From a virus: DNA of 64,000 nt. The position numbers were made by a program, and so were the translations under genes. The stretch lies in the UHGV virus genome UHGV-0109738; one strand, given 5' to 3'. Position 1 is the stretch's first letter. Every line of letters begins with the position of its first letter. A model generated the notes under the pieces. The model did no database searches and was not told where the DNA came from. It saw only the letters and a list, made by a program, of their open reading frames with translations. Shown here piece by piece: positions 38,301 to 54,962 of this stretch.

Positions 38301-38322
38301 AAAAACCCGGCGCGGGGCCGGG
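38301..38322 (-). terminator. rho-independent terminator immediately upstream of holin (tR'-like position)
   Basis: Minus-strand cccggc-cccgc-gccggg followed by TTTTT. Confidence 0.6.
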
Positions 38323-38387
38323 TAGTTATAGTTTCGCATTGTTAGAGAATATTTTAATCTGTTTGTTTACGACCTACAAATACGGCG

Positions 38388-38564
38388 TTACGGCTTTCTA
38401 TATATCAGGCCATTATCAAGCAATGTTTGCATATGCCACCGATCCATGTCGCTTAATTCCCAATAAGGAACATCATCAGGTCTTATCATCACCGATTCAC
38501 CTCTAACCAAATAGGCGATGTTAAATACCTTATGTAAATAGATGCCATCTTCGATCTCGTTCAT
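38388..38564 (-). CDS. small hypothetical protein (58 aa), paralog of 38561-38740
   Basis: Manual translation; N-terminus MNEIEDGIY; start overlaps upstream stop (ATGA). Confidence 0.4.
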   Translation of the reverse strand: MNEIEDGIYLHKVFNIAYLVRGESVMIRPDDVPYWELSDMDRWHMQTLLDNGLIYRKP

Positions 38565-38740
38565 AGGTCGCTAACCTTAAACAGTATGCCTTTATCAACG
38601 CCACGCTTAATGTCTTCCCTTGTTGTTTTGAAGAACGGCTCATATTCCCCACCATCGAAGCTGATTGTTACAGTATCGCCGCCCACTATGTAAAAAACGT
38701 TCTCCATCAGGTTTACACCATAGATACCGTCTTCAATCAT
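38561..38740 (-). CDS. small hypothetical protein (59 aa), paralog of 38388-38564
   Basis: Manual translation; N-terminus MIEDGIYGV; ATGA overlaps at both ends. Confidence 0.4.
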   Translation of the reverse strand: MIEDGIYGVNLMENVFYIVGGDTVTISFDGGEYEPFFKTTREDIKRGVDKGILFKVSDL

Positions 38741-38931
38741 TTCTTGCGCTCCTTAATAGCTCGCTTGATCTGCACTACCGTAGCATCGAAGAAAGCGAGA
38801 AACATCACTACAGGCCATAAAGGAATCTCAAGGCCACCACGATCGAGATCGTTATATTTGATGAAACAAGACATCAGGATAGCGCCAGCGATATAAAGGA
38901 GAAATACAGCAAAGATAAGACATTCAATCAT
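38737..38931 (-). CDS. small membrane protein (64 aa)
   Basis: ORF track; hydrophobic N-terminal half. Confidence 0.45.
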   Translation of the reverse strand: MIECLIFAVFLLYIAGAILMSCFIKYNDLDRGGLEIPLWPVVMFLAFFDATVVQIKRAIKERKK

Positions 38932-39064
38932 CCTCTTTCTCCCCGCCTAAATGTTGATATATTTTTTCAGCATTTTCCCCGCGCTCAAAACAATAATGCT
39001 CAAACATGCGCCAGTGTTCACTAAGAAACATAACAATAAACTTGTTTACGTATTCGTCATCCAT
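38924..39064 (-). CDS. small hypothetical protein (46 aa)
   Basis: Manual translation; start 3 nt after upstream stop. Confidence 0.35.
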   Translation of the reverse strand: MDDEYVNKFIVMFLSEHWRMFEHYCFERGENAEKIYQHLGGEKEDD

Positions 39065-39066
39065 CG

Positions 39067-39378
39067 TTAATCATCCTCTTCATCGTCTTCTTGTTCAGCT
39101 AGGAAATCATCGACAGAACAGTAAGTAACTGGCGGGATATATTCGAAGTCATCCGTATCAAGATCGAGCGTCCTGCTGTCGCCGTCGTCGTCAATCGTAT
39201 TCATTCCTAACTCACCGAAAGGGCCGTACCCAATGTGGCCCAGGTATTCGCAACCAATCGCAAACCCAGGGTATTCGCCTTTACACCGGATTTTGTAAAG
39301 TTTATTTGATGCGCTCAATTTCCGACCCTCCACTTTCTGCTTCAGTGATTTTGTATTCTGCCGCCAGTTCAGCGCCAA
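39067..39378 (-). CDS. hypothetical acidic protein (start uncertain)
   Basis: ORF track; acidic C-terminal tail EQEDDEEDD; N-terminal region ambiguous between frames. Confidence 0.3.
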   Translation of the reverse strand: MALNWRQNTKSLKQKVEGRKLSASNKLYKIRCKGEYPGFAIGCEYLGHIGYGPFGELGMNTIDDDGDSRTLDLDTDDFEYIPPVTYCSVDDFLAEQEDDEEDD

Positions 39379-39628
39379 GCAATTCCACTTCCATATTAGC
39401 GATACCCTGGAACATCAGATAGGCAAAAACTAGGCTTTTAATTCTATCCGGGTCTTCAAGATGGTCTGCATTAAAAGGCGGTTCCGATACGTGGAAGCAT
39501 TTAACATGCGCATCGTCTTCAGTGGCTACACGGAAACATGCGCCAGGTTACCCGGCGAATTCCCCCAATCTTTCTTCGTTCGGTAAAGTACCACGGAAAA
39601 CTTTAACGCTGATAAATTTAGTCATTGT

Positions 39629-39910
39629 TTATTCTCCTTCGTAAAGAGTTGCCACCAGTTCGGCATCTGTTAGCGTGTTATAATCTGTATAAAACCCGCA
39701 ACGCATAAGTGAAGAAAGGCCAGCCACTTTGCACCACATAGGGGTCGATTCGCTCAAATATTCATTCTCCCTTTTTTCGCTGTATTCCAGTTCATAAAAC
39801 CGACTATTGTTAACACCCTCAATTACACGGCTGTATGTGCCATCAAGCCTACTAACTCCGCGCCATAGTCTGATCACAACCATAATTTCTACTCCGTTTG
39901 ATGGGGCCAT
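39629..39910 (-). CDS. hypothetical protein (93 aa)
   Basis: ORF track; start lies within a GGGGCC/GGCCCC hairpin. Confidence 0.4.
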   Translation of the reverse strand: MAPSNGVEIMVVIRLWRGVSRLDGTYSRVIEGVNNSRFYELEYSEKRENEYLSESTPMWCKVAGLSSLMRCGFYTDYNTLTDAELVATLYEGE

Positions 39911-39922
39911 TCGGCCCCGTGT

Positions 39923-40063
39923 TTATTCTTCTTCTCCTCCTCTAAATCCTAAGCACTCCGCGTATTCGTCAATGCTTAATGCTTCTTCACCTGGTGCCAA
40001 TACTTCAAAGTAGCGGGCGTATAGTTCGAAAACCCAGGCCGGATATTTAGCGTTAGCGTTCAT
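39923..40063 (-). CDS. small hypothetical protein (46 aa)
   Basis: Manual translation; AAGGGG SD. Confidence 0.35.
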   Translation of the reverse strand: MNANAKYPAWVFELYARYFEVLAPGEEALSIDEYAECLGFRGGEEE

Positions 40064-40072
40064 GGTTCCCCC

Positions 40073-40351
40073 TTATGCCATGCGTGCAAATTCAAGTGAT
40101 TTGCATTCGTAGTCTTCCTCTGCCTGTTCGATGACTGCCATCATCATTTCGTTTGCGTTGTTGAATGCGTTGCTTTGTGCGAACTTGTCGGCTCCACCTT
40201 CTTCTTCGAACTCCGCGTTGTTTGCTGCAATGTAGTGATATTCGATGTTGTTCAGGTAAGGGCTTGCAGCGTGTGCTGGGTCTTCTTTCTCCACCATCTC
40301 CCAAAATGCGTTTAAGCGAGATTCGACTTCTTTGTTAATCCAGCGTTTCAT
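40073..40351 (-). CDS. hypothetical acidic protein (92 aa)
   Basis: ORF track. Confidence 0.45.
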   Translation of the reverse strand: MKRWINKEVESRLNAFWEMVEKEDPAHAASPYLNNIEYHYIAANNAEFEEEGGADKFAQSNAFNNANEMMMAVIEQAEEDYECKSLEFARMA

Positions 40352-40429
40352 TTTTCTACCCTCCGCATCGTTCTCTCTTCAGCTTCTTTATAACAAAATG
40401 GCACTGCCGAAACAATGCCATTTCGTAAA

Positions 40430-40451
40430 CCTTGTGATACAGATCACATTT
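40430..40451. promoter_or_regulatory. perfect CRP-consensus site TGTGA-N6-TCACA
   Basis: ccttgTGTGAtacagaTCACAttt in the only sizeable intergenic gap (40352-40449) of the late small-gene block; adjacent 8-bp inverted repeat aaatggca/tgccattt. Confidence 0.45.
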
Positions 40452-40674
40452 ACGTTTCTTCCGTAAAAGTAACCTTCATCGCCCCATCCGAACTACGGAC
40501 AACATAACGACCAATACCGCCTAGCGGCCCTGCATACCATAAGTGACCGTAAGTGTCAGTTACGACGATAAACGGAAATTTAGGAGACAATCCCATCGGT
40601 TTTTCAGCCGTATACTGTGCGCCTTCTTCAAAACAGCCTAATTTCGATTCGTTACACGTTAAAATCATTTTCAT
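40450..40674 (-). CDS. small protein, paralog family A member 1 (74 aa)
   Basis: Shares F-x-x-G-x-x-Y ... TD-x-x-G-x-LW pattern with three adjacent genes. Confidence 0.5.
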   Translation of the reverse strand: MKMILTCNESKLGCFEEGAQYTAEKPMGLSPKFPFIVVTDTYGHLWYAGPLGGIGRYVVRSSDGAMKVTFTEET

Positions 40675-40910
40675 ACCCCTACATACGAAAACGCAGCAAA
40701 AGCACCACCACCAGCACGCGCATAAACAAGTGCCGTGCCATACCCCATCTTATAAAATCGCCATAACTGACCCTGGTCGTCAGTAATGGCATGAATATAT
40801 TCCTGATCCTTTGCGTCAACCAATGCCGCGTCAACCTCGTAGATCTTGCCATTCTTAAAAAACGCGCTGCATCGTGAGTATGTGCACTGGTATCTATGTT
40901 TCCGATTCAT
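40671..40910 (-). CDS. small protein, paralog family A member 2 (79 aa)
   Basis: FFKNGKIYEV..ITDDQGQLWRFY; ATGA overlap with member 1. Confidence 0.5.
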   Translation of the reverse strand: MNRKHRYQCTYSRCSAFFKNGKIYEVDAALVDAKDQEYIHAITDDQGQLWRFYKMGYGTALVYARAGGGAFAAFSYVGV

Positions 40911-40920
40911 AGCACCTCAC

Positions 40921-41178
40921 TTATTCCGGTTTACTGCCTTCGCGGGCGCAAAACTCCGCGATCTCACGGAAATCATGCACTATGCGATAAATATACAAAC
41001 CAGCGGCGTTATTGATATGGCTAACATAAGCGAAATAAACTTTATCATCATCGCCAGTTATCGCCATTGCACCATCACCGCCCGGTGCGCCGTGGAGTTG
41101 AACGCCGCAATAGATCTTCCCTTCTTCAAAAATATTGCGGTCGCGCGTCTGCAATACCTCAAAATATAAATGTTTCAT
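40921..41178 (-). CDS. small protein, paralog family A member 3 (85 aa)
   Basis: FEEGKIYCGV..ITGDDDKVYFAY; AAGGGG SD. Confidence 0.5.
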   Translation of the reverse strand: MKHLYFEVLQTRDRNIFEEGKIYCGVQLHGAPGGDGAMAITGDDDKVYFAYVSHINNAAGLYIYRIVHDFREIAEFCAREGSKPE

Positions 41179-41188
41179 TGTTGCCCCT

Positions 41189-41401
41189 TTAATAACGTTC
41201 AAAGCTGGCAGCAAAACCTACACCGGATATTTCACCGCCTTCATAGCTCGGCCTGAATACCCATATTTCGTCATGATTATCAATCAAGGCAAGGCAATTA
41301 CTCATTGTGTGTGCTTCATTGCCATAAACGATGTGAACGTCATAAATACTCCCAATCGTGAAAACACTGTCATTGCTTGAGTATGAGCATTTAACTTGCA
41401 T
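41189..41401 (-). CDS. small protein, paralog family A member 4 (70 aa)
   Basis: FTIGSIYDVH..LIDNHDEIWVF. Confidence 0.5.
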   Translation of the reverse strand: MQVKCSYSSNDSVFTIGSIYDVHIVYGNEAHTMSNCLALIDNHDEIWVFRPSYEGGEISGVGFAASFERY

Positions 41402-41646
41402 CAGAAAACCCCTTTATAATCGACCGTGTATTTTGCTATCAGATTCCAGTCGCAGTAATTAAGCATGTTGCGAGGCTGCCAGCCTTTCATCCCGACCGCC
41501 CGCCGCGCAGCGTGACGGCGATAATCATCGTTATAGTCAGCTATGCACCACGGCTGGAGAACAAACATATAATTTGCTTCATTAACCAGGATAGCCACCA
41601 GCTTTCCTGTTGCCTTGTCTTTTGCCCTGAAATAATTCACTTTCAT
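41401..41646 (-). CDS. small hypothetical protein (81 aa)
   Basis: ORF track; tightly packed co-directional. Confidence 0.45.
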   Translation of the reverse strand: MKVNYFRAKDKATGKLVAILVNEANYMFVLQPWCIADYNDDYRRHAARRAVGMKGWQPRNMLNYCDWNLIAKYTVDYKGVF

Positions 41647-41858
41647 TTTAACACCTCGTCGATCAACATTTCTTCTTCCAGGTTAGCCGGACGTTTACGA
41701 AATATCCCGGCAAAAACCAGATCTTCGAGTAGGTCTTTACGCTTAAATAACCACTCTTTCATTATCACCCCGTCGTTGCTGCGATATACGACGCCGCTTT
41801 TCAGAAAATAAAAAGTGCGGCTATTGGTCTGTAGGTAGAGATCTTCGTAAACGTCCAT
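41643..41858 (-). CDS. small hypothetical protein (71 aa)
   Basis: ORF track; 4-nt overlap. Confidence 0.45.
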   Translation of the reverse strand: MDVYEDLYLQTNSRTFYFLKSGVVYRSNDGVIMKEWLFKRKDLLEDLVFAGIFRKRPANLEEEMLIDEVLK

Positions 41859-41862
41859 ACCG

Positions 41863-42090
41863 TTAATCCTCTACAATCTCAAGCCCGCGCCCCTTGTCCC
41901 CGACGAAATCGCCCAAGCTGAACGTATACGACCACGCCGGATTGATGTAATGGTCATCAGCACCAGCGGCAATGAGATCAGCACCATTAATCATGCAAGT
42001 AATATCATCGCTATGAACGACATTAACGACCTTACCAACAACCTGTTTCAATGACTGGTATCCGTGATCGTGCAAGAATTTAACTTTCAT
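41863..42090 (-). CDS. small hypothetical protein (75 aa)
   Basis: ORF track. Confidence 0.45.
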   Translation of the reverse strand: MKVKFLHDHGYQSLKQVVGKVVNVVHSDDITCMINGADLIAAGADDHYINPAWSYTFSLGDFVGDKGRGLEIVED

Positions 42091-42320
42091 TCGTCTGCCT
42101 CCCAGTGGTCTATGCTGATTAAAAAGTCCCGGATAGCGTGTCGTTCGTCGCGCGTTGGCTTGCGCTTACGGTAAATCTTAAAGTCAAACCATTCTTTTTC
42201 TTGTTCGAAATCCAGGTTGTAAGCAAGCACCTCAATATATCCACATTCGTGATACTGGTACGCCACGCCAGCACGAACAAAAAAGCGGGTTTTATCCCGC
42301 TTGTGTTCATAGATACGCAT
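42087..42320 (-). CDS. small hypothetical protein (77 aa)
   Basis: ORF track; 4-nt overlap. Confidence 0.45.
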   Translation of the reverse strand: MRIYEHKRDKTRFFVRAGVAYQYHECGYIEVLAYNLDFEQEKEWFDFKIYRKRKPTRDERHAIRDFLISIDHWEADE

Positions 42321-42330
42321 ATTTGCCCCA

Positions 42331-42561
42331 CTATGCAGTCGTGTAACTATCTACCAGCTTTTCATCCTTCATTCTGGCAAGCTGGGAGATATTCATCGTG
42401 TAGCCTTCATCAGAGAAAAGCCACTCCGCAGCCTTGCGACGAAAAGCTATATCATCATGGTTGCGCGTCCATGTAGCGATCACCACGCGCTTTCCATCAG
42501 TGGCAAACATGGTTAATTCGTTATCAACAACGTCGATAGCCTGCCAGATTTTTAGTTCCAT
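42331..42561 (-). CDS. small hypothetical protein (76 aa)
   Basis: ORF track. Confidence 0.45.
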   Translation of the reverse strand: MELKIWQAIDVVDNELTMFATDGKRVVIATWTRNHDDIAFRRKAAEWLFSDEGYTMNISQLARMKDEKLVDSYTTA

Positions 42562-42917
42562 GATTTATCACCGTAGATCTTGAATAGTTCACACGCTTTC
42601 TGATCTTCAAATATATTCATATGCAGGTCACGCAGACGGCGCATTGTTCGGAATCGCGGTCTAAACTCCTGGCTCCGTTTAATGTATTTGCCGCCAATTG
42701 AATAAATATGCCCGTATGAATACCATCTATTCCCTACCCATATTTCATATTCTTTGCCTTCGTAATTGAATTTTATCGTTAGCTCGTCCACTTCAACTAT
42801 TGACCATTTATCAATGATGTCATTAAGCATTTCGTCCCATTCTTTCAGGAATGGATGCTGATAAAAACCGAAAAGCGTATTTGCAGCGTGGCAAAGGTAA
42901 TCAATGATTATTTGCAT
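42552..42917 (-). CDS. hypothetical protein (121 aa)
   Basis: ORF track. Confidence 0.45.
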   Translation of the reverse strand: MQIIIDYLCHAANTLFGFYQHPFLKEWDEMLNDIIDKWSIVEVDELTIKFNYEGKEYEIWVGNRWYSYGHIYSIGGKYIKRSQEFRPRFRTMRRLRDLHMNIFEDQKACELFKIYGDKSWN

Positions 42918-43137
42918 ATTTCCACCTTCTCAATATGTAGTAAATGTTATCGTAAGCTATATTATCCGCATCTTCCTGTGTTATATGTCTGGCATCAAAA
43001 AAGAAATCAGCGTCGTGCCATACATGAAAAAGAAGTCGCGCGAATTGTCTGCGGCGGCGCTTACTGCGTGATAGTTCGTTAAATTCTATTAACGCTTTAT
43101 CATATGCTCTTATCATGCGCTTACGGTTACTTTTCAT
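42901..43137 (-). CDS. small basic protein, paralog family B member 1 (78 aa)
   Basis: MKSNRKRMIRAYDKALIEF..; tandem paralog of 43142-43342. Confidence 0.5.
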   Translation of the reverse strand: MKSNRKRMIRAYDKALIEFNELSRSKRRRRQFARLLFHVWHDADFFFDARHITQEDADNIAYDNIYYILRRWKYANNH

Positions 43138-43141
43138 ATTG

Positions 43142-43342
43142 TCACCACATCATATAGTAAACGTTATCATCTGCTAATTCGTCTGCGTCTCTTTGGCAGT
43201 CGATTGTCGCATCATCTTCGTGCCATTCTTTAGCAAATAAACGCGCCCATTTACGACGCTCACGTTTATTGTGCCGCAGGTCACTAAAAACCATTAAAGC
43301 CTTGTCGTAAGCTCTTACCAGGCGTTTCATTCTACTTTTCAT
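43142..43342 (-). CDS. small basic protein, paralog family B member 2 (66 aa)
   Basis: MKSRMKRLVRAYDKALMVF.. Confidence 0.5.
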   Translation of the reverse strand: MKSRMKRLVRAYDKALMVFSDLRHNKRERRKWARLFAKEWHEDDATIDCQRDADELADDNVYYMMW

Positions 43343-43548
43343 TTTTCACCCTTCCTTAATTCCTTAATTTCAATATTGCGTAACCGGACGTCGCACGGCG
43401 TTTCAGATTTACCAGTAAGCGCCAGCGTCAGGTTTTCAGGTGTCGTGTAAAGAATTATCTCTTTACCAGTGCTAAATTTAATTTCTATGCGGATCTCGTT
43501 TTCATCACCGCACAATACGCGGCTAATTGACAGGCCAGCTTTTTTCAT
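43339..43548 (-). CDS. small hypothetical protein (69 aa)
   Basis: ORF track. Confidence 0.4.
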   Translation of the reverse strand: MKKAGLSISRVLCGDENEIRIEIKFSTGKEIILYTTPENLTLALTGKSETPCDVRLRNIEIKELRKGEK

Positions 43549-43561
43549 TGCTCAACAAACC

Positions 43562-43873
43562 TTAAAATCTGTATTGCCAGTAAATATCACACTTTATTGC
43601 GAATACCTTCACCGGATCAGGGCCGAATAGTGGATGTTGAATCAACTTGATTTCGTACCCCATGTAAGGCAATACGATAATCCGGTCTTTCTCATCATCC
43701 GATGGATAACCCCATTTAATGATTAATCTTGTGTACTCCCGCCCCTCCAGGCGTTTACGCCAGTATTCATTGTAAAGCCGGTATTCTTCCACCTTCTTTC
43801 CCGCCCGGATGGCGTGGAAGTATTCACCTTTTAAATTCAAATGTAAGTGTTTATTTGCCATCGCTATGATCAT
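43562..43873 (-). CDS. hypothetical protein (103 aa)
   Basis: ORF track. Confidence 0.45.
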   Translation of the reverse strand: MIIAMANKHLHLNLKGEYFHAIRAGKKVEEYRLYNEYWRKRLEGREYTRLIIKWGYPSDDEKDRIIVLPYMGYEIKLIQHPLFGPDPVKVFAIKCDIYWQYRF

Positions 43874-44120
43874 GTAAACAGTCGTTATAGCCTTCGATGT
43901 ATCCGGTTAATCCTGTGTTACTTACTGACCAATCAGCCGAACGGCGCTTGATGGCCTTGTCCATAGTCATCTCGTCACCTGGCCCGCCTGGCTCGATGTA
44001 TTTTCTTAAATCCCTTACTATCCACGCCCTTAATTGTTGCGTATCACTGCACACACGCGCCGTTAATGTCAGATTATTAACCAGCTTTGCGAATAGATGT
44101 TCTTTTAATTTAGGCTTCAT
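43851..44120 (-). CDS. hypothetical protein (89 aa)
   Basis: ORF track. Confidence 0.4.
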   Translation of the reverse strand: MKPKLKEHLFAKLVNNLTLTARVCSDTQQLRAWIVRDLRKYIEPGGPGDEMTMDKAIKRRSADWSVSNTGLTGYIEGYNDCLHDHSDGK

Positions 44121-44310
44121 CCTTCACCTCGCGACGATAGATTTCTACTGGCTTAACCGGAATAGCGTTAAAATCACCTTCATCCAGTGCGGCAATAAAC
44201 GTTAGCGCCAACCGTGCTTCAACACCGCTTAAATACTTGCACCATGCCTCACCGTTATAATCTTTAAAAAGAATAATCACTTTTTTCATGTTTATCTCTT
44301 GTTGTTTCAT
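44110..44310 (-). CDS. hypothetical protein (66 aa)
   Basis: ORF track; begins right at Q stop, leaving no room for a lambda-like pR' gap. Confidence 0.4.
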   Translation of the reverse strand: MKQQEINMKKVIILFKDYNGEAWCKYLSGVEARLALTFIAALDEGDFNAIPVKPVEIYRREVKDEA

Positions 44311-45032
44311 TATTCACCCCGTGTCACTCGTTTAATTTCGTTATCAGCCCGCGCCTCTTCTTTGAACAATTCAGTAATGGCGTCTTCATAGAAAGCACGG
44401 TATTTCTTCCACCACGTTGATCGGCTTACCGGAAATACAAGCTGATTAACCGCACGCCGGACAAGATCTACAGGGAAACGCGAGTACCCGCGCCCGCCGC
44501 AATGCTGGCACGTTTTGAACGCTGGCATTTCCGCTGCTTCACTGGCTGCTTTATCCGGTATCTCGCCGCGCCCTTTGCATCGTTTACAATGATTGCGAAC
44601 TTTTCCATGCCCCTTGCATTTTTTGCAAAGGTGTTTTTCTCCGTAGTCGTCAAACGTAAATTTATATCCGCCGCAATCCATACAAGTTTTTTCTGTCGCG
44701 GCACTCTGGCAGTAATCCCGAAACGCGAAAACGGCAACAAGAATAATAAGATCATTGCGTTTGTCCTCGTCCAACTCCATGACGTATTCGTAATCTTTTG
44801 CCATAGCTCTTAAACGCTCTGTAAGCAAAACTACGGCCCTGTGTTTTTCGGCTTGCGATAATTCCATCTTCCCTAAAAAAGCGCTATAACCAAGCTCTAC
44901 GCGCGATTGCGCCATACCTGCTGCGGTTAGTGCATCAGTAGTATTAAGCGAGTCTGGGGACGTGCCCCGGCTTTCATCTGACAAACGCGGTGATTTTGGG
45001 AGGTGGAATTTAAGAATAGATTCCAAATTCAT
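44310..45032 (-). CDS. Q: late antitermination protein Q (lambda type)
   Basis: N-terminus MNLESILKFHLPKSPRLSDESRGTSPDSL..AAGMAQS aligns with lambda Q; Cys-rich zinc-binding region. Confidence 0.85.
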   Translation of the reverse strand: MNLESILKFHLPKSPRLSDESRGTSPDSLNTTDALTAAGMAQSRVELGYSAFLGKMELSQAEKHRAVVLLTERLRAMAKDYEYVMELDEDKRNDLIILVAVFAFRDYCQSAATEKTCMDCGGYKFTFDDYGEKHLCKKCKGHGKVRNHCKRCKGRGEIPDKAASEAAEMPAFKTCQHCGGRGYSRFPVDLVRRAVNQLVFPVSRSTWWKKYRAFYEDAITELFKEEARADNEIKRVTRGE

Positions 45033-46220: not shown

Positions 46221-46234
46221 AAAAACCACCCCTA

Positions 46235-46561: not shown

Positions 46562-46570
46562 TTGTAAATT

Positions 46571-48115: not shown

Positions 48116-48309
48116 AATAGCCTCTAAACGCGCCTCCTTGAGACAAATTAGCAGATCCCATACATCAAGCGTGGTTAAATCTGCCCCCCTTCTTAGCGTT
48201 GTAAATAGTGGCTATTTTTGGCGCTGATTTTTCCTCTTTTTTGTCGTAGCCGTTTTGCTTACCTCTTTGCTCTATGGTTTCTGATGCAAGTCTTAATAAA
48301 TCTGCTGCC

Positions 48310-48849: not shown

Positions 48850-48858
48850 TACGCCCCC

Positions 48859-49110
48859 TTAGAAATAATCCTGATCAGTTCCCCATCGGTTGTTCAAATA
48901 CCCCACCAGCCAGACAAAACGCTCGATACTGATTAGCGGGGCGACCTTGCGATAATGCTTGTCTAATATCAGCCGCGTGGCTTTATCGCTGTAGCCGTTC
49001 TTTTCCACCTCCGCTTTGCAGGCCGAAAGCGCCGCGCGGGCGGCAGTTTTTACGGCGTTAAATTGCGGCTCTGACATATTGAATAAAGCCATAGGATCAC
49101 CATGTATCAT
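48859..49110 (-). CDS. hypothetical protein (83 aa)
   Basis: ORF track. Confidence 0.4.
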   Translation of the reverse strand: MIHGDPMALFNMSEPQFNAVKTAARAALSACKAEVEKNGYSDKATRLILDKHYRKVAPLISIERFVWLVGYLNNRWGTDQDYF

Positions 49111-49348
49111 CCCAATCCGGCGCGGCAGTCAAGCAAAAACCAATGAATGCGCTCACAGCCAATAAAGCGCGGGCTGCAAAAAGAATATTCCCAATGTCGT
49201 TAAATTCAGGCAGCGACCACGTAATAAACATACCCCCCAGCATAATAACACCGATAACAGTCAGGGCCGCCAGGAAAACAAAAAGCGTAGCCAAAAGCCA
49301 CGCCCCCAACCAGTTAAAAAAGCTCTTAAGCATTTTAAACGTCCTCAA
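49097..49348 (-). CDS. hypothetical membrane protein (83 aa)
   Basis: ORF track; two hydrophobic helices. Confidence 0.4.
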   Translation of the reverse strand: MRTFKMLKSFFNWLGAWLLATLFVFLAALTVIGVIMLGGMFITWSLPEFNDIGNILFAARALLAVSAFIGFCLTAAPDWDDTW

Positions 49349-49538
49349 TTACCCCGCCTTTCACGCGCTCTTTAATATCCCATACGTGAGGCTTGCATAT
49401 TTCTTGATAGTAGTGATCCGGCCTGCTGCCGAAATACCATTTGCCATCCATATAAAAATAAACGCCAGAAAAATTTCCTGGCGCTGCCTTTGTTGCTGCT
49501 TCTGGAATTTTCCATTCCATGTAATGTTTAAATTTCAT
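49335..49538 (-). CDS. hypothetical protein (67 aa)
   Basis: ORF track. Confidence 0.4.
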   Translation of the reverse strand: MKFKHYMEWKIPEAATKAAPGNFSGVYFYMDGKWYFGSRPDHYYQEICKPHVWDIKERVKGGVIEDV

Positions 49539-49722
49539 GAGTTTTTAAATAACCCCTTCTGAATGCTTTGATGTAAAGTCCTAGCCTTCTTATATGCTGA
49601 ACGCCATCAATGATGCGCACTAAATAAATTGCACCGTTTGTGTCAGATACAAAACGACAGCCAAAACCAATACCAACCAACTTCAGGTTGTCAGGTATTC
49701 TATAATCAGTTTTCTGTTCCAT
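49528..49722 (-). CDS. hypothetical protein (64 aa)
   Basis: ORF track. Confidence 0.35.
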   Translation of the reverse strand: MEQKTDYRIPDNLKLVGIGFGCRFVSDTNGAIYLVRIIDGVQHIRRLGLYIKAFRRGYLKTHEI

Positions 49723-49820
49723 GCCTCACCTCATATGGTATTCAATAAGCCACCTGATAAACAGACATAAGGCAATAAAACCCCAGCAACAGCACATATA
49801 AAACAATGTGTCGTCCATAA

Positions 49821-50096
49821 TTAAGCCTCAATAACACCGTAATCAAACGTGCCTAAATACCGTTCGATACTTACAACCTCAATACCATCAATACACCGTT
49901 TCCACACAGACACCTGGCTTTCATTTTCTCTGAAGTGCATATTAGAAAGCACTTCATCGGCTGGATAGTCTTTCCCGGCGACGTAGGCATCGTGACCTAC
50001 GCCACCTTCTACGCAATAAAGCATCAATTCGCGTTCCATTTTTGCTTCCTCCGCACCGTAAACCTTTTGATTTCGGCTTACAAAACGGATATGCAA
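49821..50096 (-). CDS. hypothetical protein (91 aa)
   Basis: ORF track. Confidence 0.4.
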   Translation of the reverse strand: MHIRFVSRNQKVYGAEEAKMERELMLYCVEGGVGHDAYVAGKDYPADEVLSNMHFRENESQVSVWKRCIDGIEVVSIERYLGTFDYGVIEA

Positions 50097-50138
50097 TTAC
50101 AATACAAAATGTATATTTATGTGATCGGAATTACTCGG

Positions 50139-50759
50139 TTAATGCAGTACACGTTTTCCCTGTTCAGGCGTCGGCTGTGCGTTTTTCCGTGCGTCATTAA
50201 GCACAGCGATAGCCGCCTGTACGCCGAAATCATTTGCACGCATATCATTGCCAACCATTTCACCGTAAAACAATGGCATGAGCGATTTTACTTCTTCCTC
50301 TTTGTGGCCTTCCTCAATGTATTTCTGCAACATCTTAACCTCAAAGATATTTTTCATCAGGCCGCGCATAGAATGCAGTGAAACACTACAAAGCTGATCC
50401 TTGTTCAACGGGAAAATAACAGCACTTCCGAACGCGAGCGGATCAACCTCTTCCGGCACTGGTACGCGTCCGAATTCTTCCTCCATGCGCTTCACAAAAG
50501 TAAGAGAGAATACATAACGCGCTACCGATGTTTTTTCTTCCATACTTAAAGACACGTAATCGCGGATTGACGCCCCCATCACAATATCAACAACCTGTAG
50601 CGCCAGATTCAAATCAGCGTCATACGCGCCAGCTTCCATATCTTTCAATACTTCGTGATAATCTTTAATTTCCACTTCGTGAAAGTTTGCATCATCTGTA
50701 TAGCGAGTGATCAACATACCTTCATTACCGAGAGAGTAAGCTGTTTTGATGTCGTTCAT
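50139..50759 (-). CDS. hypothetical protein (206 aa)
   Basis: ORF track. Confidence 0.5.
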   Translation of the reverse strand: MNDIKTAYSLGNEGMLITRYTDDANFHEVEIKDYHEVLKDMEAGAYDADLNLALQVVDIVMGASIRDYVSLSMEEKTSVARYVFSLTFVKRMEEEFGRVPVPEEVDPLAFGSAVIFPLNKDQLCSVSLHSMRGLMKNIFEVKMLQKYIEEGHKEEEVKSLMPLFYGEMVGNDMRANDFGVQAAIAVLNDARKNAQPTPEQGKRVLH

Positions 50760-50772
50760 GATATTTATCCTT

Positions 50773-51105
50773 TTATAGTGGGTGATGCCATTTCATTTCT
50801 GTTTCTGAATTAAACGGGTTTCCTTCGCTTGAAAGGAATAAATCACGCTCCCGTTTCAGTTCTTCCGGGCTTATTTCTATTTCATCAATCTGACCGAACG
50901 ATCCCGGCATCATTCGTTTTAAATCAGATAGCGGACGCATAAGGCCGCAGCCGCGTAACAGCATATCGACCGCGAATTGTCTACGTCCGGCGGCGTCATT
51001 AAAGCGCCGTGCCCAGGGCACAACCACGATCCTGCGTTCGAATTCGATAAATAGTGATAGCTTGTTTGTTTCGCTATCATATGCTTTATGGAATTTAATT
51101 TTCAT
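50773..51105 (-). CDS. hypothetical protein (110 aa)
   Basis: ORF track. Confidence 0.45.
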   Translation of the reverse strand: MKIKFHKAYDSETNKLSLFIEFERRIVVVPWARRFNDAAGRRQFAVDMLLRGCGLMRPLSDLKRMMPGSFGQIDEIEISPEELKRERDLFLSSEGNPFNSETEMKWHHPL

Positions 51106-51286
51106 TTAACACCTCGACGTATTGCTCAAGATGCCATGTACCAACTTCATCCATGTTTTCGTCGTATATAATGACCTCTCCGCCTTGCCTGAATCTGAAA
51201 GCAGTAGCTGTAAATTCACGGCCCCACCACGCCTTTAATCGCTCCCCACCTTTCATGTGTTTAACCTTTACTTCTTTTATGGCCAT
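51095..51286 (-). CDS. hypothetical protein (63 aa)
   Basis: ORF track. Confidence 0.4.
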   Translation of the reverse strand: MAIKEVKVKHMKGGERLKAWWGREFTATAFRFRQGGEVIIYDENMDEVGTWHLEQYVEVLNEN

Positions 51287-51549
51287 ACGCCGAACATCCC
51301 ATTCAGTCCGGCGAACAATTTCCGCCAGTGGTTTTCAACATAAGCCCGGAACGGCTTAACGCGAACATTGCGGGCCTTCAGTTCAATCTTGTCGAAGAAA
51401 CGCGGCTCTATAATTGTTCCGTCCAGATATTTAACCAGGATCGGGCGCTCAAGATCGTTATATGTCTTGTTCAGCACAACCAGACCAGGGTCACTACGAT
51501 ATTCAGACAAAACAACAAGATCGCCCTCTTTTACATTCCAAGTAACCAT
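51277..51549 (-). CDS. hypothetical protein (90 aa)
   Basis: ORF track; ATG start adjacent to upstream micro-ORF stop. Confidence 0.4.
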   Translation of the reverse strand: MVTWNVKEGDLVVLSEYRSDPGLVVLNKTYNDLERPILVKYLDGTIIEPRFFDKIELKARNVRVKPFRAYVENHWRKLFAGLNGMFGVWP

Positions 51550-51668
51550 CACATCACCACCTTACCAATAAAAGCCAATACCGCAGCAAGTGCTCCGCAA
51601 AATACAATCGTAAACAGGAAACAAATAACGCAAAACGCGACCGTCACAATATCCTTACCGACTTTCAT
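51549..51668 (-). CDS. micro-ORF, hydrophobic peptide (39 aa) MKVGKDIVTVAFCVICFLFTIVFCGALAAVLAFIGKVVM
   Basis: Manual translation; ends with ATG-TGA overlapping next start. Confidence 0.35.
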   Translation of the reverse strand: MKVGKDIVTVAFCVICFLFTIVFCGALAAVLAFIGKVVM

Positions 51669-51676
51669 GATTGGCC

Positions 51677-51790
51677 TCACATGTTAGTGATGAGTTTAAT
51701 GATCGATACCGTGATATAAAGCGATACGCTGAGATACAGCACGGCGATAGATAAAGCCGCAAGCAATGCGGCAATTTTTGCAAGGTTCAT
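51677..51790 (-). CDS. micro-ORF, hydrophobic peptide (37 aa) MNLAKIAALLAALSIAVLYLSVSLYITVSIIKLITNM
   Basis: Manual translation; GGAGGG SD; ATGA overlap with upstream gene. Confidence 0.35.
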   Translation of the reverse strand: MNLAKIAALLAALSIAVLYLSVSLYITVSIIKLITNM

Positions 51791-52011
51791 TTGCCACCCT
51801 CCGCAATGAACTTATTAAGCCATTTGTTATTAGCCAGCCGTTCGGTATCTTCGCCGAATGATTTACGGTCGCTTAATTCCTGGCGAGTAAGCTGAGGACA
51901 TTTATCGTGCCACCCCGCAGACGTTTCGAACTCATACAGGCCGCCGTCAAAATAAATAAGCTCATCACGACCGTCAGGAATTTCCTTGTCTACTTCTTTT
52001 TCTTTAATCAT
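51787..52011 (-). CDS. hypothetical protein (74 aa)
   Basis: ORF track. Confidence 0.4.
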   Translation of the reverse strand: MIKEKEVDKEIPDGRDELIYFDGGLYEFETSAGWHDKCPQLTRQELSDRKSFGEDTERLANNKWLNKFIAEGGK

Positions 52012-52023
52012 GATAACACCTCA

Positions 52024-52302
52024 TTAATCGTTAATGACCTGGCCCATACGCCCGCGATATTTGCGCATACGTGGATCGACATATTCAGGCCAATGCATAT
52101 CCGGTTTTCTTTGCAGTGGGTAAAAACTTGCCTGCCAGTTGTCGAACCATATTTGCTTTGCGTACAGGTCACTAAATCTTTTCGCCATCCGATCCGCTGC
52201 CGTGCCGCATAAAAAAAGCCCGCGATCGATTTGATCACGGGCTTCTCTTAAAACTTTCTCTTTTGTTCGCGGCGGCGGTGGTGCTTTTAAATAATTACCC
52301 AT
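52024..52302 (-). CDS. hypothetical protein (92 aa)
   Basis: ORF track. Confidence 0.4.
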   Translation of the reverse strand: MGNYLKAPPPPRTKEKVLREARDQIDRGLFLCGTAADRMAKRFSDLYAKQIWFDNWQASFYPLQRKPDMHWPEYVDPRMRKYRGRMGQVIND

Positions 52303-52317
52303 CGCTAACCTATTGAA

Positions 52318-52734
52318 TCAGAATGGAATATCATCGTCGAAGTCCATCGGCGGCGGATTATTCCCGTTATTATTTTGAGGCGGTGGCGCTTTCTGCTGCT
52401 GGCCTTGCTGCTGGCCTTGTTGGTTAACGTTCATGAATTCAAATTCGTTAACCGCCACTTCTACCGCAGTTCCCTTCGTGCCGTCGTTCCGGTCATATTG
52501 CCGAACATCAAGGCGACCGCTTACCACTATTTTCCCACCCTTGCGGATATGTGGCGCTAATTTTTCCGCACGCTCACCAAATACCAGACAAGTGATCCAC
52601 ATTACCCGCTTATTATCGCCGTAGCCATTCGTTACAGCTAACGGAAAACTACCAATCGCTTTCCCGCTCGGCGTGTAGCGAACCTCCATATCATTACCTA
52701 TATTCCCGCCCGCCGTGATTGAATTTAAACTCAT
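52318..52734 (-). CDS. ssb: single-stranded DNA-binding protein
   Basis: OB-fold N-terminus, Gln/Gly/Pro-rich linker and acidic tip DFDDDIPF. Confidence 0.9.
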   Translation of the reverse strand: MSLNSITAGGNIGNDMEVRYTPSGKAIGSFPLAVTNGYGDNKRVMWITCLVFGERAEKLAPHIRKGGKIVVSGRLDVRQYDRNDGTKGTAVEVAVNEFEFMNVNQQGQQQGQQQKAPPPQNNNGNNPPPMDFDDDIPF

Positions 52735-53375
52735 TAACCCATCTCCCCGTTAAGCTCCGCTTTGCGGATACCATATACGTCTTGCGCTTTCTGCCTTTGC
52801 TCTGAATTTTCAGGCAATAACTTCCAGCATTTACCGAATATTTCCCTTAGTGTTTTTTCGTCCGGCGCTTTCGCTGCTGCATCACAGAAACGTGCTAACA
52901 CTTCATCAGGATTTGGCGGCGCTTTCTTCTGCTGCTGTTGTTGTTTTGGTGGGTTTTTCTGTTGTCGCGGCTGCTGGCCTGTCTGCTTCGCGTAATCATC
53001 AGTATCAGGATCGCGAGCATCATCTATGCAGAATAAACCGTTCAAAGCATATTTCCGCGCGTAACTTGATGTTGCTCCTGTTAGCTGGCTGGCGTCCATA
53101 CCCTTCTTGCTTTCTTCCTCCCTGGCATAAGCAGTTACCGCTATTACGTCTTCACCGTCGCTTAGCGTCGCCGTGGCTTTCACATAATAGCGATTGCCGA
53201 TCAGGACAATTTCATCACTAACAGTCAGCGTGATATTTTGAAGCAGTGGTTTAACCGCCTCTAAAATATCCTCCGCCGACCTGTAATTATACCCGCCAAA
53301 ATTATTACGCTGATTTTTCGGCGCGTTCAGCGTTTGCTGAATCGTCCATAGCTTTTTATGTAACTCTGTTTTCAC
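52734..53375 (-). CDS. erf: Erf-family single-strand annealing recombinase
   Basis: Aligns with P22 Erf (LNAPKNQ..YRS.EDILE.VKPLL; DEIVLIG.RYYVKATAT; KKGMDA.Q.TGATSSYARKY.LNGLF.IDDA). Confidence 0.9.
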   Translation of the reverse strand: MKTELHKKLWTIQQTLNAPKNQRNNFGGYNYRSAEDILEAVKPLLQNITLTVSDEIVLIGNRYYVKATATLSDGEDVIAVTAYAREEESKKGMDASQLTGATSSYARKYALNGLFCIDDARDPDTDDYAKQTGQQPRQQKNPPKQQQQQKKAPPNPDEVLARFCDAAAKAPDEKTLREIFGKCWKLLPENSEQRQKAQDVYGIRKAELNGEMG

Positions 53376-53524
53376 CCTTTAATCTCCTTCGCTGTTAACA
53401 CTATGTATAAGGCTTTATTCGCGGCGCTCCACATTTCGGCATCATGAAGCATTTCCGCTACCGCCAGTTTGAATTGAAGCGCCAGAATAACCATAATGTT
53501 ACCCCCGAATGTTTACATTTTGTA

Positions 53525-53779
53525 TTAATGGTAGCGGACTTTATCCAGGGGTTTTTCCCCTAAATGGCGTGGTTGCGTTGCGTGGTAGTAGTTGCCGCTT
53601 TCATTTTCCGTATACCATTTCACTGATCCTTTGCGACGTTCTTTAATGCTATTTGGTTTGCATCTTTCCTCGTTTGCAAATCGAATAGCTTTATCCACAT
53701 TGTCTGTTTTATTGATTGCAGGTGATGATTTTCTTTCGTTTTCTCTTTTTATCCTTCTGCGTTCTCTGGCATTCATTTT
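53525..53779 (-). CDS. N-like transcription antiterminator (arginine-rich motif)
   Basis: N-terminal ARM MNARERRRIKRENERK; first gene leftward of cI, downstream of nutL-like element. Confidence 0.55.
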   Translation of the reverse strand, partial: KMNARERRRIKRENERKSSPAINKTDNVDKAIRFANEERCKPNSIKERRKGSVKWYTENESGNYYHATQPRHLGEKPLDKVRYH

Positions 53780-53859
53780 GCTATCACATTTGCCATATAT
53801 AATTGTAACGCTCATAATCTGATCTCCGTATATCCTTGATGAAAATTAATAAAAATCAT

Positions 53860-53897
53860 CTTCGTTAATTGCCGCACTTCCAGCGGCTGACCAGATT
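53860..53897 (-). promoter_or_regulatory. nutL-like element (boxA CGCTCATTAAC plus boxB hairpin GCCGC-TGGAAGT-GCGGC)
   Basis: Minus-strand boxA-like sequence 10 nt upstream of a 5-bp-stem hairpin with GA-rich loop, about 80 nt upstream of N start. Confidence 0.45.
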
Positions 53898-54314
53898 GTT
53901 AATGAGCGGCTTAACATCTTTCAACTAATCCCGCAATCATCGCCGTTCCCGGCGTGACCTTGCTCACTCCAAGCAAGCTGACTCGTCGCCTTGCGTGCGG
54001 TTTCGTGGGGGATGTAACGCTTTAAACACCCCATGCGCCTTGTTATCAGTGCCGCTTTCGGTCCCCCATCGGGGAGTTACTCCACGGTTGACAAGGTGTT
54101 AAGCCTGATTTTTAAAGTGCCAGGAAGTTGCTTTTGTTACCTGCGACCTTCCTTTGACTCGCAATATACGCCCCGTAAAACATCGAGTCAATCCATTTTG
54201 TATACTTTTTTAAAATATTTTATATGCTATTGATATTTAAACAATAAATAACGTTTTCTGTTTACGTTTTGGCGTTTTTAAGGCAAAGAAAAGCCGCCAT
54301 CCGGCGGCTAATGT

Positions 54315-54962
54315 TTATGGCAGGTTTACGATCTTCGCATCAACCACCACGCCTATAATTTTCGATTCTGGATTCATAGGGATTGGCGGATACAGCGGAT
54401 TGAGCGAACGTAAAAGCCTTTGACCTCCATCAATAATCAACTGTTTAAACGTCGGTATCTGCCCTTCCTCAAGCTGGGCTATAACCAGTTTGCCGTCAAT
54501 AGCTGGCGCGTGCGGGTCCACAAGTATCATCGTCCCCGCCGGGATGCTCAACCCCTGCGGCGCGTTCATTGATTCACCTTTGGCAACCAGCCAGTAACTG
54601 TCATCTGAACAAATAACGCTAGTCGTAACGTGTCGTAATGCTGAACGCCTTGCGTCATCCATATTGTTTACTGTGTCCTTCCAGTCAATAACCGGGTAAC
54701 TACCTAAATCACGCGGCGGCACGGCCTGAAGTGTATTAGAAACAGAATCATCAATGACCATGCCATCATGTGTAACAGTAAACTGCCGACGACCAAGCTC
54801 GCGCATAATCCGCGCAATATCTTCAAGATTTGGCTCTCGGCGACCGTTCAGCCAGTGTGACAGGCCGCCTTTAGTTATCCCCATACGATCCGCGAGTGAA
54901 TCCTGGCTCATGCCCTGCGCCCGCATGAGCTGCTTTGCTAAGTCATACCATTTTGTTTTCAT
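54315..54962 (-). CDS. CI-type prophage repressor (HTH plus S24 LexA-like peptidase domain)
   Basis: N-terminal HTH (MSQDSLADRMGITKGGLSHWLNGRR); C-terminal S24 motifs (AKGESM..; K in QLIID). Confidence 0.85.
   Translation of the reverse strand: MKTKWYDLAKQLMRAQGMSQDSLADRMGITKGGLSHWLNGRREPNLEDIARIMRELGRRQFTVTHDGMVIDDSVSNTLQAVPPRDLGSYPVIDWKDTVNNMDDARRSALRHVTTSVICSDDSYWLVAKGESMNAPQGLSIPAGTMILVDPHAPAIDGKLVIAQLEEGQIPTFKQLIIDGGQRLLRSLNPLYPPIPMNPESKIIGVVVDAKIVNLP

Follow-up and report, generated by a model that had tools for sequence, protein, structure and literature searches.

The gene order on the repressor side of this genome is real, and it is the fixed, already published layout of the mEp021-like (mEpimmI) E. 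coli gut phages. The DNA analysed, here called the window, is a stretch of 64,000 nucleotides from virus genome UHGV-0109738, and the order in question lies between positions 38,301 and 54,962. We consider it very probable that this region represents the immunity, early and delayed-early segment of an mEpimmI prophage, and that its modules keep the order that is ancestral and fixed in the group. The mEpimmI phages were described in 2025 as "Nus-dependent non-lambdoid" coliphages, with 48 genomes of high synteny (PMC11893012). Their isolates are reported to depend on host Nus factors, neither hybridisation nor viable hybrids with lambda were found, the group is set apart from the lambdoids, and integration is in ydaM, abgT or mppA according to integrase type (PMC11893012). 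They are also reported to be as common as lambdoid phages in human faeces.

Using Pfam and PHROGs, we confirmed that the cI, N-like, erf, ssb, two methyltransferase, ninG, rusA, Q, lysis and structural genes are all co-directional and leftward. The features from the repressor to Q are as follows.

54315-54962, minus strand: CI-like repressor, Rep021 homologue (Pfam HTH_3 and Peptidase_S24)
54309-54292, minus strand: terminator t1, directly 3' of the repressor gene (hairpin and T run, fold z -3.9)
54163-54191, minus strand: putative promoter for early transcription of the N arm, TTGACT-17-TATATT (highest-ranking promoter match here)
53907-53895 (boxA) and 53888-53872 (boxB), minus strand: nutR1, upstream of N, boxA with at most two mismatches from GCTCTTTAAAAAT
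53525-53815, minus strand: N-like antiterminator, Gp17 homologue (PHROG 271 "anti-termination protein N-like", E 5.6e-14)
52734-53375, minus strand: Erf recombinase (Pfam ERF, 3e-42)
52318-52734, minus strand: SSB (Pfam SSB, 2e-22)
51772-51756, minus strand: terminator t2 (hairpin, syntenic with mEp021 TERM_2)
49485-49461, minus strand: terminator t3 (hairpin, syntenic with mEp021 TERM_3)
48310-48849, minus strand: Dam methyltransferase (Pfam Dam, 2e-51)
within 46571-48849, minus strand: membrane protein between the two methyltransferases
46571-47335, minus strand: second DNA methyltransferase (PHROG 757, 7e-87)
46548-46440, minus strand: composite element of the nutR2 unit, with CRP-like site 46548-46533, motif TCCATTTTGTATACTT at 46502-46487, then nutR2
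46472-46460 (boxA) and 46453-46440 (boxB), minus strand: nutR2
45615-46310, minus strand: NinG (Pfam, 3e-67)
45211-45618, minus strand: RusA (Pfam, 7e-16)
44310-45032, minus strand: Q antiterminator, lambda family (PF03589, 103 bits, cut-off 26.7)

The opposite arm was likewise confirmed with Pfam and PHROGs. It reads rightward from the initiator through helicase, ninB and a small HTH gene to a convergent integrase, and the sign of the GC skew in the window flips near 55 kb. The preliminary description had called the HTH gene xis; it encodes a small HTH DNA-binding protein adjoining int and is here called only xis-like.

54988-55158, plus strand: replication-arm control region, with CRP-like site 54988-55003, then promoter motif and nutL
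55022-55050, plus strand: putative replication-arm promoter, TTGATC-16-TAAACT, within motif TCCATTTTGTAAACTT
55126-55138 (boxA) and 55145-55158 (boxB), plus strand: nutL, named in PMC11893012
55267-62796, plus strand: replication arm (protein like the O N-terminus with HTH, initiator, zinc-ribbon/T5orf172 protein, exonuclease, DnaB, NinB, HTH protein)
55267-56580, plus strand: initiator, Lin1244-type (Pfam, PHROGs)
58848-60269, plus strand: DnaB (Pfam, PHROGs)
61285-61716, plus strand: NinB (Pfam, PHROGs)
62566-62796, plus strand: small HTH protein, xis-like (Pfam, PHROGs)
62736-63962, minus strand: tyrosine integrase, convergent with the replication arm (Pfam Phage_integrase and Arm-DNA-bind_3)

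Like lambda, the window has a CI-like repressor between two divergent early arms, an N gene downstream of and co-directional with cI, an N-type antiterminator with an arginine-rich motif, boxA/boxB nut sites, a lambda-family Q, and NinB, NinG and Rz homologues. The order nevertheless differs from that of lambda, where the genes for NinB, NinG, Q and Rz lie on the cro side and point away from cI. In the window NinG, Q and Rz are downstream of cI and co-directional with it, and NinB is on the other arm. When compared with the lambda map, the window does not follow the lambdoid order int-xis-recombination-N-cI | cro-replication-nin-Q-lysis-structural. Unlike in lambda and other lambdoids such as P22 and HK022, the replication genes and NinB read toward xis/int, and the recombination genes, NinG, RusA, Q, lysis and structural genes come after N. 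There are three nut sites instead of two, and no promoter block lies directly 3' of Q. Compared with lambda, the central block (recombination genes, N, cI and replication genes) appears inverted in the window.

The preliminary description had read this order as a mosaic or rearranged regulatory circuit. A one-off circuit made by recent inversion or mosaic exchange of a lambdoid immunity and early region would agree with the formal equivalence to lambda with its central block inverted, and with the lambda homologues in the window (NinB 51%, NinG 52% to lambda Nin204, Q 35% and cI 34% identity). We give it a very small probability, because no relative departs from this order, and seven of those relatives are sequenced phage isolates. 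mEp021 and the related IMG/VR loci (46/46 centred on Q and 44/44 centred on cI) share both order and orientation with the window, and the order of the replication arm was identical in 44/44 relatives. When window positions 44000-64000, which span both arms, were compared with 5426 complete E. coli genomes, 35 matched, and in 28 of these the match covered 80% or more at a single collinear location. Megablast gave no DNA similarity of the region to lambdoid phages, the DNA matches being limited to mEp-group phages, and the nearest Q outside the group has at most 36% identity. The group also stands apart from lambdoids, with no viable lambda hybrids (PMC11893012). The order is thus the published norm of a well-described phage group, the outcome that the preliminary description had named as refuting its reading. 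A circuit peculiar to this locus is not supported, and a recent inversion is refuted. An ancient inversion relative to the lambda order may have occurred.

Window positions 11439-63990 form one collinear series with mEp021 146-53357, the whole phage genome; the window stops about 10 nt past the last homology on the int side. The mEpimmI phages compared were mEp021, mEp010, mEp013, mEp044, mEp515, mEp554 and MagusPhagus (PMC11893012). They are collinear with the window over the whole genome at 67-93% DNA identity per block, with every module in the same order and orientation. Their GC content is 46% (45.9% in the window), and the positions of the three nut sites and of t1, t2, t3 and t5 are syntenic; where t4 would be expected, the window has the palindrome that contains the CRP-like site. 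The integrase has 89% identity to mEp021 Int. The window differs from the group at its left end, which runs on into lambdoid cdt-I-type prophage DNA instead of the usual 280-bp end. This is the one genuine junction of the two-prophage type in the window, located inside the tail-fibre gene at 9990-11311. Positions 1-11311 are 99% identical to the end of lambdoid cdt-I prophages, below 9990 the sequences of other mEpimmI prophages depart from that of the window, and a metagenome contig with 100% identical proteins stops inside this shared repeat. These observations would suit an order that is an artefact of mis-assembly, or of two tandem prophages joined in the window. However, the junction is 27 kb from the region of interest, and 11439-63990 is collinear with complete phage genomes and complete E. 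coli chromosomes. We therefore give such an artefact a very small probability; in the region of interest mis-assembly is excluded, since the genomes of sequenced phage isolates run through it without a break in collinearity.

The N/nut system of the group is also known: mEp021 Gp17, nutR1, nutR2, nutL and terminators t1, t2 and t5 had been tested experimentally by 2023 (PMC11893012). The repressor of the window shows 94.9% identity to mEp021 Rep, and its Rep021-type sequence with HTH and S24 domains would place it among the immunity-I repressors. No operators were identified in this analysis, and no Cro-like or cII homologues were recognised. The t1 hairpin, which corresponds to mEp021 TERM_1, has an invariant stem and a variable loop in 45 relatives. 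At the putative N-arm promoter, whose early role we infer, both hexamers are kept across 35 distinct relative sequences with one or two exceptions, and the spacer between them is variable. The N-like protein has 93.8% identity to mEp021 Gp17, with an arginine-rich motif of R17, R19, R20, R21 and R24. The arginines conserved in Gp17-type proteins (R17, R19, R20 and R24), listed in PMC11893012, are all present in MSVTIIYGKCDSKMNARERRRIKR.

The three nut sites have fixed positions, each boxA (53907-53895, 46472-46460 and 55126-55138) being followed by a hairpin. A "nutL-like" site had been placed at 53860-53897; its boxA and boxB are real and the boxB lies inside that range, but the boxA is mostly just outside it and the site is the published nutR1. 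The nutR1 boxB stem varies by compensatory changes (GCCGC/GCGGC, GCTAC/GTAGC, GCAC/GTGC), the closing pair of the nutR2 boxB covaries (G.T, A-T, C-G), and a GNRA-type hairpin is predicted for nutL. With a boxA consensus and a boxB hairpin kept by compensatory change, the sites belong to the nut class, for which function has been shown in mEp021 only (PMC11893012).

nutL and nutR2 are each preceded by a CRP-like site and a promoter-like motif; in the nutR2 unit the CRP half-sites are conserved and their spacer is variable. At all three sites, and in 141 instances, 40.5-41.5 nt separate the CRP-like site from the motif. This promoter-like motif, a 16-bp asymmetric sequence (TCCATTTTGTAWACTT), recurs at about 12 mostly intergenic places in the genome.

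Downstream of Q the features are as follows.

38388-44310, minus strand: hypervariable array of about 25 small ORFs from Q to the holin (ORF list)
42302-42283, minus strand: terminator-like hairpin and T6 inside a core small ORF
38281-38380, minus strand: holin cassette, with -10-like TAAAAT (38356-38351), AACAAT (38343-38338), t5 and Shine-Dalgarno
38323-38305 and T run, minus strand: terminator t5 at the holin (hairpin z -3.1)
38080-38280, minus strand: holin (Pfam Phage_holin_2_3)
37129-38280, minus strand: lysis genes holin, lysozyme and Rz with embedded Rz1-like ORF (Pfam Phage_lysozyme, Phage_lysis)
9968-35417, minus strand: packaging, head and tail genes (Pfam terminase, portal, tail tube, tape measure, L, J)

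Q shows full-length similarity to lambda Q (E 2e-48), contains an insertion of 31 aa and carries an extra CxxCxGxG zinc finger. No conserved non-coding block for a promoter or pause site was found just 3' of Q, where the Q stop overlaps the start of the next ORF in all relatives. The Q-to-holin interval is 6.0 kb in the window, compared with about 2 kb in mEp021 and 3.1-6.8 kb in 44 IMG/VR loci. The holin hairpin had been placed at 38301-38322 and taken for the only clear terminator before lysis. It is real, far from Q, lies at 38323-38305 and equals the published t5, reported as experimentally shown in mEp021 (PMC11893012), but it is not the sole terminator-like element: the 42302-42283 hairpin lies between Q and holin, present in 45/46 relatives with zero synonymous variation across it, and the t1, t2 and t3 hairpins lie between cI and Q.

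A core of about 75 nt in the holin cassette begins just before the -10-like hexamer and ends at the holin start. It hardly varies among 46/46 relatives, although the ORFs upstream of it are of at least five unrelated types; the -35-like part of the cassette has two variants. The core resembles lambda pR'-qut-tR' in having a -10, a 6-7 nt gap, AACGAT/AACAAT and an intrinsic terminator before the holin, together with a Q of the same family. The spacing is TAAAAT-7 nt-AACAAT, compared with TAAATT-6 nt-AACGAT in lambda. This near-invariant block resembling the lambda promoter, pause and terminator suggests that Q acts there and not beside its own gene, the cassette being a candidate Q-responsive unit detached from the Q gene. 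In contrast to lambda, the candidate unit abuts the holin at 2-7 kb from Q, its proposed promoter has a weak -35 (TTGTAG) without an extended -10, and about 50 nt instead of 194 nt separate it from the terminator; its role is predicted from sequence. Accessory genes spanning kilobases also separate Q from the lysis genes in Stx-converting lambdoid phages. Their pR' remains beside Q and their accessory genes are late, whereas the conserved control block of the window stays with the holin.

Alternatively, the holin may lack a late promoter of its own: polymerase modified by Gp17 would read through from the upstream promoters into the lysis and structural genes, Q would act at another place, and the conserved block would be no more than t5 with translation signals. 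Every gene from N to the tail fibre is co-directional, N-type antitermination complexes are processive in lambda, the -35 is poor, and our promoter scan did not pick the TTGTAG/TAAAAT pair, all of which fit read-through. Lambda-family Q proteins, however, load at a promoter-proximal sigma-dependent pause, and a promoter is needed for this reason. Moreover, the invariant stretch reaches some 45 nt beyond the hairpin on its upstream side and holds the -10-like hexamer and AACAAT in a lambda-like register, and no other conserved non-coding block exists between Q and holin. Read-through alone is therefore rather unlikely in our judgement, though it keeps a real share of the probability.

With the detached holin unit, a tentative circuit can be drawn. 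The CI-like repressor, whose function was shown for mEp021, would be transcribed leftward to end at t1. Upon derepression, the consensus-like promoter just downstream of t1 would transcribe nutR1 and the N-like Gp17, and a second putative promoter would transcribe nutL and the replication arm. Gp17 and host Nus factors at the nut sites would then let RNA polymerase pass t2, t3 and later terminators as far as Q, as shown for mEp021. nutR2 may have its own promoter, built like that of the replication arm, with the CRP-like site near -61. Q would act at the conserved cassette abutting the holin and release transcription past t5 into the lysis and structural genes. The circuit would comprise three promoter-nut units, two of them (replication arm and ninG-rusA-Q) with a CRP-like site whose distance is fixed and class-I-like, a Q unit fixed to the holin, and the dispersed motif, which may mark a phage-specific promoter class or genome-wide repressor sites. 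We hold this composite reading as a possible arrangement, somewhat short of an even chance. Because the Q-responsive unit would be fixed to the holin, the hypervariable ORF array of 2-7 kb would belong to the early programme.

The order itself matters little as a finding, being a documented hallmark of a common gut phage group in which N/nut has been tested; it illustrates that N/Q-type antitermination is not bound to the lambda gene order. The additions made here to the known gene order and N/nut system are the holin cassette, the CRP-like/promoter units and the recurring motif; the three-unit circuit, detached late unit and dispersed motif are absent from the group description (PMC11893012). 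They suggest where the late switch of mEpimmI is located and offer an own promoter as the explanation for the third nut site, and the CRP-like sites are a possible catabolite control input to replication and Q expression.

The structural block is collinear with the mEp021 genes mapped by mass spectrometry. Small opposite-strand islands were observed in it near 19.2-20.5, 21.5-22.0 and 24.7-25.1 kb.

The genes and strands given in the preliminary description were confirmed by ORF tiling and family searches over the window, and are arranged as follows.

Genes of the window (coordinates or place, strand, identity)
54315-54962, minus strand, CI-like repressor (HTH plus S24)
53525-53815, minus strand, N-like protein (PHROG 'anti-termination protein N-like', E 5.6e-14)
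leftward after the N-like gene, minus strand, Erf, SSB and small ORFs
leftward arm, minus strand, Dam, a membrane protein and a second methyltransferase
leftward arm before Q, minus strand, NinG and RusA
44310-45032, minus strand, lambda-family Q (PF03589, 103 bits)
38388-44310, minus strand, ~25 small ORFs in the Q-to-holin interval
38080-38280, minus strand, holin, followed by lysozyme and Rz
leftward arm, minus strand, terminase, portal, head genes, tail tube, tape measure, L, K, I and J
9968-11767, minus strand, tail fibre
from ~55.27 kb, plus strand, rightward arm, opening with an HTH protein similar to the N-terminal domain of O-type initiators
next in order, plus strand, Lin1244-type initiator, zinc-ribbon/T5orf172 protein, exonuclease, DnaB, NinB and a small HTH protein
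62736-63962, minus strand, tyrosine integrase, convergent and overlapped by the small HTH protein

The GC skew of the window switches sign near 55 kb, as expected from two divergent transcription arms. No tRNA was found in a tRNA scan of the window, no Rfam family reached threshold over its whole length, and neither arm had a recognisable Cro-like or CII-like gene. The replication initiator is apparently split (55267-56580): an 85-aa protein, matching O-type initiators in their N-terminal DNA-binding part only, is followed by a separate 350-aa Lin1244-type protein. Relative to lambda Q, the Q of the window has a 31-aa insertion that contributes an additional CxxCxGxG (DnaJ-type) zinc-finger repeat.

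Five window proteins had lambda homologues, namely NinB (51%), NinG (52%), Q (35%), cI (34%) and Rz (33%). In lambda, NinB, NinG, Q and Rz all lie on the cro side, divergent from cI, whereas in the window NinG, Q and Rz follow cI on the same strand and NinB belongs to the other arm. Like that of lambda, the N gene of the window is downstream of cI and co-directional. Formally, the layout is that of lambda with the block of recombination genes, N, cI and replication genes inverted. The module order was correctly singled out as unusual when set against lambda. No DNA similarity of the region to lambdoid phages was detected.

This order is the norm of a described group, an outcome that the preliminary description had named as refuting its reading. 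When both halves of the region were compared by megablast with 50,697 phage records, the only matches were mEp021, mEp010, mEp013, mEp044, mEp515, mEp554 and MagusPhagus. Window 11439-63990 aligned with 146-53357 of mEp021, a phage of the mEpimmI group of E. coli gut phages, as a single collinear series with 67-93% identity per block. All 46 related IMG/VR loci centred on Q had the same order for the genes they held, all on one strand (cI, N-like, Erf, SSB, Dam, methyltransferase, NinG, RusA, Q, holin, lysozyme, Rz, terS, terL). One layout was shared by mEp021 and the group loci centred on the repressor (44/44), with Int (+), then xis-like, NinB, DnaB, exonuclease and initiator on the opposite strand, then cI (+), N-like and the rest. 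A relative was present in 35 of 5426 complete E. coli genomes, 28 of which carried 44000-64000 in one collinear place. A scan of species-representative genomes with the N-like antiterminator Gp17 returned no relatives.

The mEpimmI group was described by Negrete-Mendez et al. 2025 (PMC11893012) as Nus-dependent, non-lambdoid temperate coliphages from human faeces, with 'high synteny' and ~46% GC among 48 genomes. Immunity was shown to be conferred by the CI-like repressor Rep021, and Gp17 has conserved arginines 17, 19, 20 and 24 (PMC11893012). The group has three nut sites: nutR1 precedes gp17, nutR2 follows the methyltransferase and nutL lies on the other side of the repressor. Of the terminators, t1, t2 and t5 were shown by experiment and t3 and t4 are predictions (PMC11893012). 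The repressor and Gp17 of the window are 94.9% and 93.8% identical to their mEp021 counterparts, the latter with R17, R19, R20, R21 and R24, and the GC content is 45.9%. The window proteins thus fit the published group, and the module arrangement is already known. Synteny comparison, the kind of check suggested in the preliminary description, gave an order fixed in every relative and in mEp021, and the view of a peculiar, rearranged or mosaic circuit was not correct. Mis-assembly of two prophages, raised as a possible source of the order, was rejected for this region on the collinearity with mEp021 and with complete E. coli genomes. Being fixed in all members and found without lambdoid DNA similarity, the layout is a deep property of the lineage and not a rearrangement of this locus.

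The nut site noticed upstream of N is real and is the published nutR1. The three sites of the group lie as follows.

nut sites of the window
boxA 53907-53895 (GCTCATTAACAAT), boxB 53888-53872, minus strand, nutR1
boxA 46472-46460, boxB 46453-46440, minus strand, nutR2
boxA 55126-55138, boxB 55145-55158, plus strand, nutL (predicted fold of a 5-bp stem with a GCGA loop)

In many relatives the nutR1 boxA reads GCTCTTTAACAAT, close to the rrn boxA (TGCTCTTTAACAA). Pairing in its boxB stem is kept by compensatory changes among relatives (GCCGC/GCGGC, GCTAC/GTAGC, GCAC/GTGC), and the closing pair of nutR2 boxB covaries (G.T, A-T, C-G). The N leader also contains a 13-nt inverted repeat (53908-53920 with 54093-54105, 92% complementary, 172 nt apart). 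It brackets a stretch to which a further boxA-like word (GCACTTTAAAAAT, 54108-54120) is also assigned. The segment is absent altogether in some relatives, which places nutR1 ~45 nt from the promoter.

A 16-bp word, TCCATTTTGTAWACTT, occurs in exact copies at 55035-55050 (+), 46502-46487 (-) and 54192-54207 (+). At up to 3 mismatches, 12 copies were found in the window against 1.9 expected, a number reached by 0/100 shuffles. Its core, CATTTTGTAWA, is ~20-fold over-represented (11 copies against 0.5 expected), and mEp021 has 12 copies in syntenic places.

Motif sites of the window
left: 19245-19260, 21176-21191, 21243-21258, 24460-24470, 40388-40432, 46487-46502, 46556-46571
right: 54192-54207, 54993-55010, 55035-55050, 57676-57691, 58818-58833, 61748-61758

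The word is asymmetric, its second half being a -10-like hexamer (TATACT or TAAACT). The copies are mostly intergenic, and 8/12 aim at a co-oriented downstream gene, including each strand switch of the tail region. The motif may represent a class of phage promoter or dispersed repressor sites. A search for palindromic operators common to both early promoter regions returned only this asymmetric motif and loose A/T-rich repeats. The word GTTTTAC, which lies in the N-arm promoter spacer, was rejected as a candidate operator, as it is not conserved.

CRP-like sites, defined as TGTGA-N6-TCACA with at most 1 mismatch, numbered 7 in the window against 2.0 expected. Three of them lie 40.5-41.5 nt upstream of a motif copy.

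CRP-like sites upstream of the motif
54988-55003, before nutL
46548-46533, before nutR2
40448-40433

Across the loci, 141 instances keep this spacing, and relatives differ in the central bases of the site but conserve its half-sites. The usual gap from the -10 hexamer to the start is 7 nt, and class-I CRP sites are positioned near -60 to -61. With a 7-nt gap, the CRP-like site would likewise be centred near -60 to -61. On this conserved arrangement, nutR2 seems to be served by a promoter of its own, similar in build to that of the replication arm; if so, it would account for the presence of three nut sites in the group. Other near-consensus CRP-type palindromes are at 11813-11828, 19163-19178 and 21216-21231.

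The preliminary description also placed the only clear terminator before lysis at the holin. The hairpin there is real and is t5, but it is not the sole terminator-like element between Q and holin.

Hairpins of the leftward arm
54309-54292, minus strand, counterpart of t1
51772-51756, minus strand, counterpart of t2
49485-49461, minus strand, counterpart of t3
42302-42283, minus strand, hairpin plus T6, within a core small ORF at its 5' end
38323-38305, minus strand, t5, hairpin plus T run at the holin

The hairpin at 42302-42283 was present in 45/46 relatives, with zero synonymous change while the flanking codons vary. It is likely a functional RNA element or terminator, judging from this constraint, and the mEp021 annotation has no counterpart of it. 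The mEp021 't4' was rejected as a terminator: in the window it corresponds to a palindrome that holds a CRP-like site and lacks a T run.

Where the late switch lies was approached from both ends of the Q-to-holin interval. In every relative the Q stop codon and the start of the following ORF overlap, the sequence 3' of Q varies like coding sequence, with a wholly different ORF in mEp021, and no conserved non-coding block follows Q in the relatives. Upstream of the holin, a core of ~75 nt, from just upstream of a -10-like hexamer to the holin start, was near-invariant in 46/46 relatives, and the stretch before it has two variants. The core is kept despite at least 5 unrelated types of ORF ending just before it and a Q-to-holin distance of ~2 to 6.8 kb. 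The ORF array occupying this variable distance has few ORFs in common with mEp021.

Conserved block upstream of the holin (holin cassette)
38281-38380, minus strand, TTGTAG-17-TAAAAT, 7 nt, AACAAT, ~14 nt, t5 hairpin, T run, Shine-Dalgarno, ATG

Lambda pR' reads TTGACT-17-TAAATT, 6 nt, AACGAT, and the AACAAT of the cassette is in the same register. In lambda, AACGAT is the sigma-dependent pause element and Q loading site. Since a lambda-family Q should need a promoter-proximal site, we propose a Q target at the holin. The late switch probably sits at the cassette; the Q target would then be detached from the Q gene and the variable ORF array transcribed with the early genes. Against this, the -35 is poor and differs in the second variant, and the terminator would be only ~50 nt from the start. 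The cassette was found in mEp-group phages only, so there is no known pR' for comparison, which weakens the proposal. A search for closer Q relatives with mapped promoters gave nothing nearer than 36% identity outside the group. Two Q sequence types were tested for pairing with the two -35-region variants, and no association was seen. The promoter-level observations, on the holin cassette and on nutR2, are drawn from conservation only and may be new relative to the literature consulted.

At the left end, window 1-11311 matches, at 99% identity, the terminal part of lambdoid prophages of several E. coli strains; beyond their tail fibre gene, these prophages have type I cdtA, cdtB and cdtC (window 6793-9001). 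Toth et al. 2009, as cited in PMC4001111, reported that lambdoid prophage genes flank the type I cdt genes. Other mEpimmI prophages have the fibre gene in common down to 9990, then diverge, usually ending ~280 bp later. On these comparisons, mEpimmI-type DNA gives way to lambdoid-type DNA within the fibre gene (9990-11311). Either the junction is that of a natural recombinant, in which a cdt-I module became linked to this phage, or it was created in assembly across a 1.3-kb repeat; a metagenome contig with proteins 100% identical to those of the window ends within the shared stretch, at ~10780. The junction does not affect the module order at 38-64 kb. Beyond the cdt genes, window 1-6500 is low-GC (32-40%), island-like DNA; comparison with strain E5 assigns to it RepL, DUF4756, two H-NS-family proteins and DUF6387. 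The E5 counterpart runs on into a region with TcpC and TIR-domain genes.
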